Assembly (NCBI RefSeq): GCF_030013595.1 | Contig: NZ_CP122768.1 | Source: Escherichia coli | GTDB lineage: Bacteria; Pseudomonadota; Gammaproteobacteria; Enterobacterales; Enterobacteriaceae | Length of the DNA stretch: 64,000 nt | Reading direction: 5' to 3' (one strand) | The notes under the pieces: model-generated | What the model saw: the letters and a program-made list of their open reading frames with translations, nothing else | Told to the model about the DNA's origin: nothing | Databases searched by the model: none | Position numbers and translations under genes: made by a program | Part shown: positions 60,246 to 60,767 of the stretch, one piece after another | How the letters are laid out: each line of letters starts with the position of its first letter | Numbering within the stretch: the first letter of the stretch is position 1

Positions 60246-60444
60246 GTATCTGATATCTGTCGCCGCATACCGTGTCGGATGCGGCGTACACGCCTTCTCT
60301 GACCGACAAACGAATTATCCACAATCCGCTGATGGACATTTTTCCAGCAATTACACCTCCGGCGATAATTAACTATTGACGAAAAGCTGAAAACCACTAG
60401 AATGCGCCTCCGTGGTAGCAATTCTTTTTAAGAATTGACGGTAT

Positions 60445-60531
60445 GCGAAGGTGGCGGAATTGGTAGACGCGCTAGCTTCAGGTGTTAGTGTCCTTACGGA
60501 CGTGGGGGTTCAAGTCCCCCCCCTCGCACCA
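60445..60531 (+). tRNA. leuQ: tRNA-Leu (CAG)
   Basis: GCGAAGGTGGCGGAATTGGTAGACGCGCTAGCTTCAGGTGTTAGTGTCCTTACGGACGTGGGGGTTCAAGTCCCCCCCCTCGCACCA; first of three tandem copies. Confidence 0.93.
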
Positions 60532-60559
60532 AAAACCACGTTGATATTGCTCGCACTGG

Positions 60560-60646
60560 GCGAAGGTGGCGGAATTGGTAGACGCGCTAGCTTCAGGTGT
60601 TAGTGTTCTTACGGACGTGGGGGTTCAAGTCCCCCCCCTCGCACCA
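60560..60646 (+). tRNA. leuP: tRNA-Leu (CAG), variant copy (C to T in variable arm)
   Basis: Same 87-nt sequence except GTGTTCTT instead of GTGTCCTT. Confidence 0.93.
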
Positions 60647-60680
60647 AACGAGGCGATATCAAAAAAAGTAAGATGACTGT

Positions 60681-60767
60681 GCGAAGGTGGCGGAATTGGT
60701 AGACGCGCTAGCTTCAGGTGTTAGTGTCCTTACGGACGTGGGGGTTCAAGTCCCCCCCCTCGCACCA
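60681..60767 (+). tRNA. leuV: tRNA-Leu (CAG)
   Basis: Third tandem copy, identical to the first. Confidence 0.93.

Follow-up and report, generated by a model that had tools for sequence, protein, structure and literature searches.

The closest described relatives of the genes considered here are the tRNA-Leu(CAG) isodecoders of Escherichia coli. The genes leuQ, leuV and leuT (tRNA-Leu-CAG-1, the major tRNA-Leu1) are identical to one another, and leuP, which matches them at 86 of 87 positions and has the same anticodon and codon, is given a separate listing. The three identical genes carry C at position V13 of the variable arm, in a C-G pair, whereas leuP carries U, in a U-G wobble; leuQ and leuV share a transcript with leuP. 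A similar case is that of tRNA-Tyr1 (tyrT/tyrV) and tRNA-Tyr2 (tyrU), which have the same anticodon, are both present in the cell and are distinguished by one or two bases that lie outside the identity elements. Here too, tyrU is given a separate listing from tyrT and tyrV. Both pairs are paralogues with differences in the variable region, but they serve different amino acids, and the tyrosine genes lie in separate operons whereas the leucine genes form one tandem array.

Six E. coli isoacceptors have two isodecoders each, and the variant of the Leu-CAG-2-1 isodecoder has been placed at Sprinzl position V13 (bioRxiv 10.64898/2025.12.27.696718). In the same study, native MRE600 tRNA gave two ionic-current populations that match both isodecoders. 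LeuP has also been described as one variable-loop nucleotide apart from LeuQ/T/V (PMC12472396), and a suppressor tRNA with leuP as its body was abundant and moderately active (PMC13276491). Mohanty and Kushner found that leuQPV is one transcript, that RNase P, without the help of RNase E, separates it into individual tRNAs, and that its termination is Rho-dependent (PMC2190699). On structure, they mention only unpublished predictions with RNase P sites inside stems. For the mapping of the leuQPV promoter, PMC2190699 cites Duester et al. 1981.

In the window (the whole stretch of E. coli DNA that was analysed, 64,000 nucleotides), ARAGORN and an alignment of the genes confirmed what the initial annotation had proposed, namely three tandem tRNA-Leu(CAG) genes, leuQPV, with one C/T difference between them (Table 1). 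Each copy scored 48.5 bits against Rfam RF00005, for which the gathering score is 29, with the full model (1-71) matched, and ARAGORN placed the anticodon cag at position 35 of the 87-nt gene. The putative promoter matched the consensus at 10 of 12 positions in a consensus scan. The genes are flanked by rsmC upstream and by yjjZ and then fhuF downstream in the annotated MG1655 region and in other E. coli regions. The open reading frames of the window agree with this order, and tblastn found RsmC and FhuF in its flanks. These flanks identify the locus as the leuQ-leuP-leuV operon of E. coli.

Table 1. Positions within the window of the leuQPV genes, their spacers and other features discussed in the text.
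Feature	Position	Strand	Details
Putative promoter-like site	60376-60403	+	TTGACG, 16-nt spacer, TAGAAT, then G+C-rich GCGCCTCC; consensus match
Leader, 3′ part	60425-60444		TTAAGAATTGACGGTAT
leuQ, first tRNA-Leu(CAG)	60445-60531	+	87 nt; C48 = window 60492; ARAGORN and Rfam
Spacer 1	60532-60559	+	60543-60553 (GATATTGCTCG) complementary to spacer 2
leuP, middle tRNA-Leu(CAG), isodecoder Leu-CAG-2-1	60560-60646	+	87 nt; T48 = window 60607; ARAGORN and Rfam
Variant base T (U in RNA), Sprinzl V13	60607	+	Alignment and fold; coordinate from bioRxiv 10.64898/2025.12.27.696718
G55 of leuP	60614		Partner of position 48 in the predicted fold
Spacer 2	60647-60680	+	60649-60660 (CGAGGCGATATC) complementary to spacer 1
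Spacer 2, 3′ part	60666-60680		GTAAGATGACTGT
leuV, third tRNA-Leu(CAG)	60681-60767	+	87 nt; C48 = window 60728; ARAGORN and Rfam
A-C oppositions in the acceptor stem	60449/60523, 60564/60638, 60685/60759		Gene positions 5 and 79
8-C runs	60516-60523, 60631-60638, 60752-60759		One in each gene
Prophage-like region	~36000-58000		Terminase, tyrosine integrase, Rha and KilA-N genes
tRNA-Gly(TCC)	40535-40609	-	Anticodon UCC; within the prophage-like region

The middle gene is identical at 87 of 87 positions to leuP of E. coli K-12 MG1655 (NC_000913.3; b4369, GtRNAdb tRNA-Leu-CAG-2-1), with the same middle position and the same flanks, rsmC and yjjZ/fhuF. The leuQ gene of the window is identical to K-12 leuQ/leuV, and the genes of NC_000913.3 read C, T, C in transcription order at the variant position. 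Spacers 1 and 2 match the MG1655 re-sequence CP025268.1 at every base. The middle gene is thus almost certainly leuP, the already catalogued second isodecoder of the major tRNA-Leu1 (anticodon CAG). The base preceding the encoded CCA is A in the tRNA-Leu(CAG) genes, and all positions of leuP other than V13 are identical to those of the C-type genes. E. coli LeuRS recognises leucine identity through the discriminator A73 and D-loop/tertiary elements, and not through the variable arm, on which it does not depend.

The single variable column in the alignment of the three genes is position 48, and the sequence there reads GTGTCCTT in copies 1 and 3 and GTGTTCTT in copy 2. Since this is an exact sequence difference and not a statistical signal, chance is irrelevant to it. 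Folded alone, the 15-nt variable region gave the same structure in both versions,.((((....)))).., with a 4-bp stem and a 4-nt loop, in which position 48 pairs with G55. The predicted stability of the isolated region fell from -5.2 kcal/mol with C48 to -2.3 kcal/mol with T48. In this model, T48 turns a C-G pair of the variable stem into a U-G wobble while the helix remains, as the initial annotation had stated. The 48:55 pairing is supported by Tenebrionibacter (locus L019), because its middle copy combines T48 with A55, a compensated U-A pair.

The initial annotation regarded the difference as a minor polymorphism; taken to mean a change peculiar to this strain, this part did not hold. The annotation had itself named a shared difference in reference copies as the outcome that would refute it, and MG1655 carries the same difference, which makes it ancestral. 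T48 is the reference state of leuP, known from genome annotation, GtRNAdb and recent papers. The finding itself therefore matters little, beyond removing a false lead, in that T48 is not a strain marker.

The distribution of T48 outside E. coli was surveyed in one genome per GTDB species by scanning for three tandem variable-arm 22-mers, allowing C or T at position 48 and G or A at position 55. The scan returned 40 Enterobacteriaceae loci. Many familiar species, among them Salmonella enterica subsp. enterica and Klebsiella pneumoniae, are not in its output, which is uninformative since three exact 22-mers were required and short-read assemblies often break at the repeat; one of the loci (L036) is a 292-bp contig with the array alone. 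On every contig that is long enough, RsmC is encoded immediately upstream, and the 40 loci are taken as orthologous because of this linkage. The pattern C-T-C was found in 34 of the 40 species genomes, spread over more than 15 genera: Escherichia, Salmonella, Citrobacter, Klebsiella, Raoultella, Kosakonia, Enterobacter, Pseudocitrobacter, Phytobacter, Pseudenterobacter, Intestinirhabdus, Franconibacter and other Enterobacteriaceae, the family to which both Franconibacter and Tenebrionibacter belong. The remaining loci read C-C-C (Pluralibacter gergoviae and strain LSJC7), C-C-T (a Pluralibacter MAG, L020, and Trabulsiella, L040), T-T-C (Kosakonia arachidis, L030) and C, T with partner A, C (Tenebrionibacter). 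In all, 38 of the 40 species thus carry T in one copy or more. It is practically certain that T in the middle gene of the rsmC-linked operon was inherited from the common ancestor of the sampled Enterobacteriaceae genera. A one-base difference between otherwise identical tandem tRNA genes has accordingly survived since before these genera diverged.

In L020 and L040, T lies in copy 3 rather than copy 2, and in L030 it lies in copies 1 and 2, with the spacer order normal in each case. These shifts suggest gene conversion or recurrent mutation at one site. Setting aside the homopolymer-length differences of some assemblies, the only other substitutions in the ~117 gene copies of the 40 species are C24T in E. 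albertii (L004) and G55A in Tenebrionibacter, both in the middle copy. Together with C26T in E. coli O111:H8, all extra substitutions seen lie in the middle copy, which hints from sequence comparison that leuP may be the least constrained copy of the array.

Of the 5,429 matching complete-genome records of E. coli, 4,536 (~84%) contain the T variant with all 87 nt exact. An 88-nt probe, consisting of spacer 1 and the first 60 bases of the middle gene, was used in its native T version and in a synthetic C version. The T version was exact in 4,526 records. The C version placed 561 records in the top identity band, of which ~453 were partial matches from genomes without spacer 1, so that C follows spacer 1 in ~108 records once these are subtracted. 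The surrounding 601 bases match 5,425 of 5,426 complete E. coli genomes, with at least 99% identity over the 601-bp query in only 381 records; the downstream yjjZ region differs somewhat among strains.

Variant arrays (loci L003 and L044-L047) were recorded in O157:H7 SS52, the MG1655 re-sequence CP025268.1, H10407, O55:H7 CB9615 and ECCTRSRTH03. Enterotoxigenic E. coli (ETEC) H10407 and O55:H7 CB9615 read C-C-C, as does CP025268.1, whose third copy has a 9-C run that may be an artefact of assembly. ECCTRSRTH03 has two copies, C-C, and O157:H7 SS52 a single C copy. In O111:H8 (L049), T48 is retained and the second change, C26T, occurs in leuP only. Some of the C-C-C records may be polishing artefacts. 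T is the majority state in E. coli, and T, or the whole gene, has been lost in clearly viable lineages.

The rate of change at position 48 was compared with that of the adjacent rsmC, for the 29 taxa with full-length rsmC, by counting Fitch steps on a neighbour-joining tree. The third bases of 44 NNY codons with conserved amino acids, scored as a two-state C/T character, served as neutral sites; the spacers are themselves conserved and unfit as a neutral yardstick. Synonymous-site identity of rsmC between the window and other genera is ~0.5-0.6. The synonymous NNY sites took a median of 4 steps, with 34% of sites at 2 or fewer, and position 48 took 1 step in copy 1, 2 in copy 2 and 1 in copy 3. 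On this 29-taxon tree, position 48 of copy 2 is not distinguishable from the synonymous sites of rsmC. The sum over the three copies is 4 steps, and ~5% of random synonymous triplets do as well, a borderline result (p about 0.05). The test is given no weight as proof in either direction.

From these comparisons, T48 has probably persisted as an effectively neutral or very weakly selected base. Near-neutrality is plausible because lineages without T exist (H10407, O55:H7 CB9615, O157:H7 SS52 and ECCTRSRTH03), because the step count at the site falls within the synonymous range, and because the extra substitutions all lie in the middle copy, as if it were the least constrained. The initial annotation had called the change probably neutral, and this has been neither established nor overturned: the rate test is non-significant and T-less lineages occur, but the deep retention of T leaves room for weak selection.

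A course of events consistent with near-neutrality can be proposed. U at V13 converts one C-G of the four-pair variable stem into U-G, leaving a helix predicted to be ~3 kcal/mol weaker in isolation. According to the literature, leuP is co-transcribed with its neighbours from one promoter; once RNase P has freed it, the tRNA decodes CUG in the ordinary way. The U would be tolerated since LeuRS ignores the variable arm and the three C-type genes would supply most of the pool. Reversion would be rare, as it needs a specific back-mutation or a gene-conversion tract. The favoured, though far from assured, reason for the persistence of T48 is therefore a combination of a change invisible to LeuRS, a pool that is mostly C-type and rare reversion.

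The strongest alternative holds that leuP is ancestral and that its U is actively maintained by selection, either for a distinct role of the tRNA (in folding, turnover or recognition by a processing or modification enzyme) or for a precursor in which the wobble lies within a spacer helix. Such maintenance is possible, but is held to be less probable than its absence. It would account for the retention of C-T-C in 34 species of more than 15 genera, against rsmC synonymous identity of only ~50-60% between genera, and for the T copy in 38 of 40 species, including the two with T in copy 3 and the one with a compensated U-A pair. The ~117 gene copies are otherwise essentially invariant, so single-base changes in them are visible to selection, and copies 1 and 3 hold C as faithfully as copy 2 holds T. 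Moreover, the copy-number changes in E. coli show that recombination occurs between copies, which is expected to erase T faster than point mutation alone, and a conserved putative helix flanks leuP specifically. Against maintenance by selection stands the non-significant rate test, in which 2 steps compare with a median of 4 and are equalled by 34% of synonymous sites. Successful E. coli lineages (O157:H7, O55:H7 and H10407) live without T or without the gene, and LeuRS, as is generally known, makes no use of the variable arm. A literature search on whether the leuP variant is conserved or functional across genera gave no specific result, and none of the papers found reports a leuP-specific function; the GUAAGA motif of spacer 2 shows no covariation in species with C in the middle copy.

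A helix of the kind invoked above could form between the complementary segments of spacers 1 and 2 (Table 1), with 11 pairs and one bulged G. Over the 40 loci, 94.2% of cells are standard pairs, compared with 19-61% in controls that shift the partner by 1 to 3 columns. The helix is present in the RNAalifold consensus and in the minimum-energy fold of the 427-nt transcript. Spacer duplex energies are ~-12 to -19 kcal/mol; in 9 of 10 species, no more than 4.5% of shuffles were as good. One pair of the helix varies, being U-G (15), C-G (11) or U-A (8); double compensatory changes were absent across the 40 loci, and the covariation score was exceeded in 33 of 500 shuffles. The conserved complementarity, with its weak covariation, is suggestive of a helix that would enclose leuP alone in the precursor. 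Potential helices around the first and third tRNAs (leader with spacer 1, and spacer 2 with trailer) had duplex energies that, across species, did not consistently beat those of shuffles; only the pairing between the two spacers stood. No description of a helix between spacers 1 and 2 was found in the literature. The complementarity could bear on how RNase P handles the intact leuQPV transcript, a question raised by Mohanty and Kushner 2007.

A direct link between the variant base and spacer 2 was also considered, in which the variant U extends a pairing of leuP UCUUAC with GUAAGA of spacer 2. This was rejected, as species with C in the middle copy (L007, L020 and L040) keep the same spacer-2 A. 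Klebsiella and Raoultella have UUAAGA at this site, and six complementary bases are within chance expectation.

In its most far-reaching form, the selective reading would have U at V13 selected throughout the Enterobacteriaceae, with leuP functionally distinct, perhaps in connection with a spacer helix that clamps only leuP. This is considered unlikely; if true, the folding of the middle tRNA, or the order of its processing by RNase P, would depend on a weakened variable arm. The long survival of leuP T48 makes it a small natural test case for the speed at which gene conversion homogenises tandem tRNA genes and for selection on one wobble pair in a highly expressed tRNA.

Two further explanations are dismissed as extremely improbable. 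A recent, strain-specific C-to-T mutation in this isolate, which the initial annotation implied, has nothing in its favour beyond the difference itself and is contradicted by K-12 MG1655, which has this base too, as do 84% of E. coli records and many other genera. The possibility that the window contains a sequencing or assembly error draws some credit from the error-prone nature of identical tandem repeats, from the records with errors in the length of the 8-C run and from the MG1655 re-sequence that reads C-C-C, but T is what the reference carries, errors are likelier to homogenise it to C, and so erase it, than to create it, and both isodecoders have been resolved by native tRNA sequencing (bioRxiv 10.64898/2025.12.27.696718).

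Each of the three genes contains an 8-C run (Table 1). In mismatch-repair-defective lines, this run is reported to be the chief hotspot for indels among E. coli tRNA genes (PMC8510543). In public assemblies (L017, L023, L027, L037, L044 and L050), the run comprises 7 to 9 or more bases; these length differences may be sequencing errors or real slippage. The fifth pair of the acceptor stem is a non-standard A-C opposition in all three copies, which was flagged by cmscan and is invariant across all sampled species.

The leader and spacer 2 are alike in their 3′ parts (Table 1), and spacer 1 contains CTCGCAC, the same as the 3′ end of the tRNA. These likenesses may have been left by the duplications from which the array arose. 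Upstream of about 58 kb, the rest of the window is prophage-like; the region listed in Table 1, which lies upstream of yjjG-rimI-holD-rsmC, is present at 80% coverage or more in only 14 to 141 E. coli genomes.
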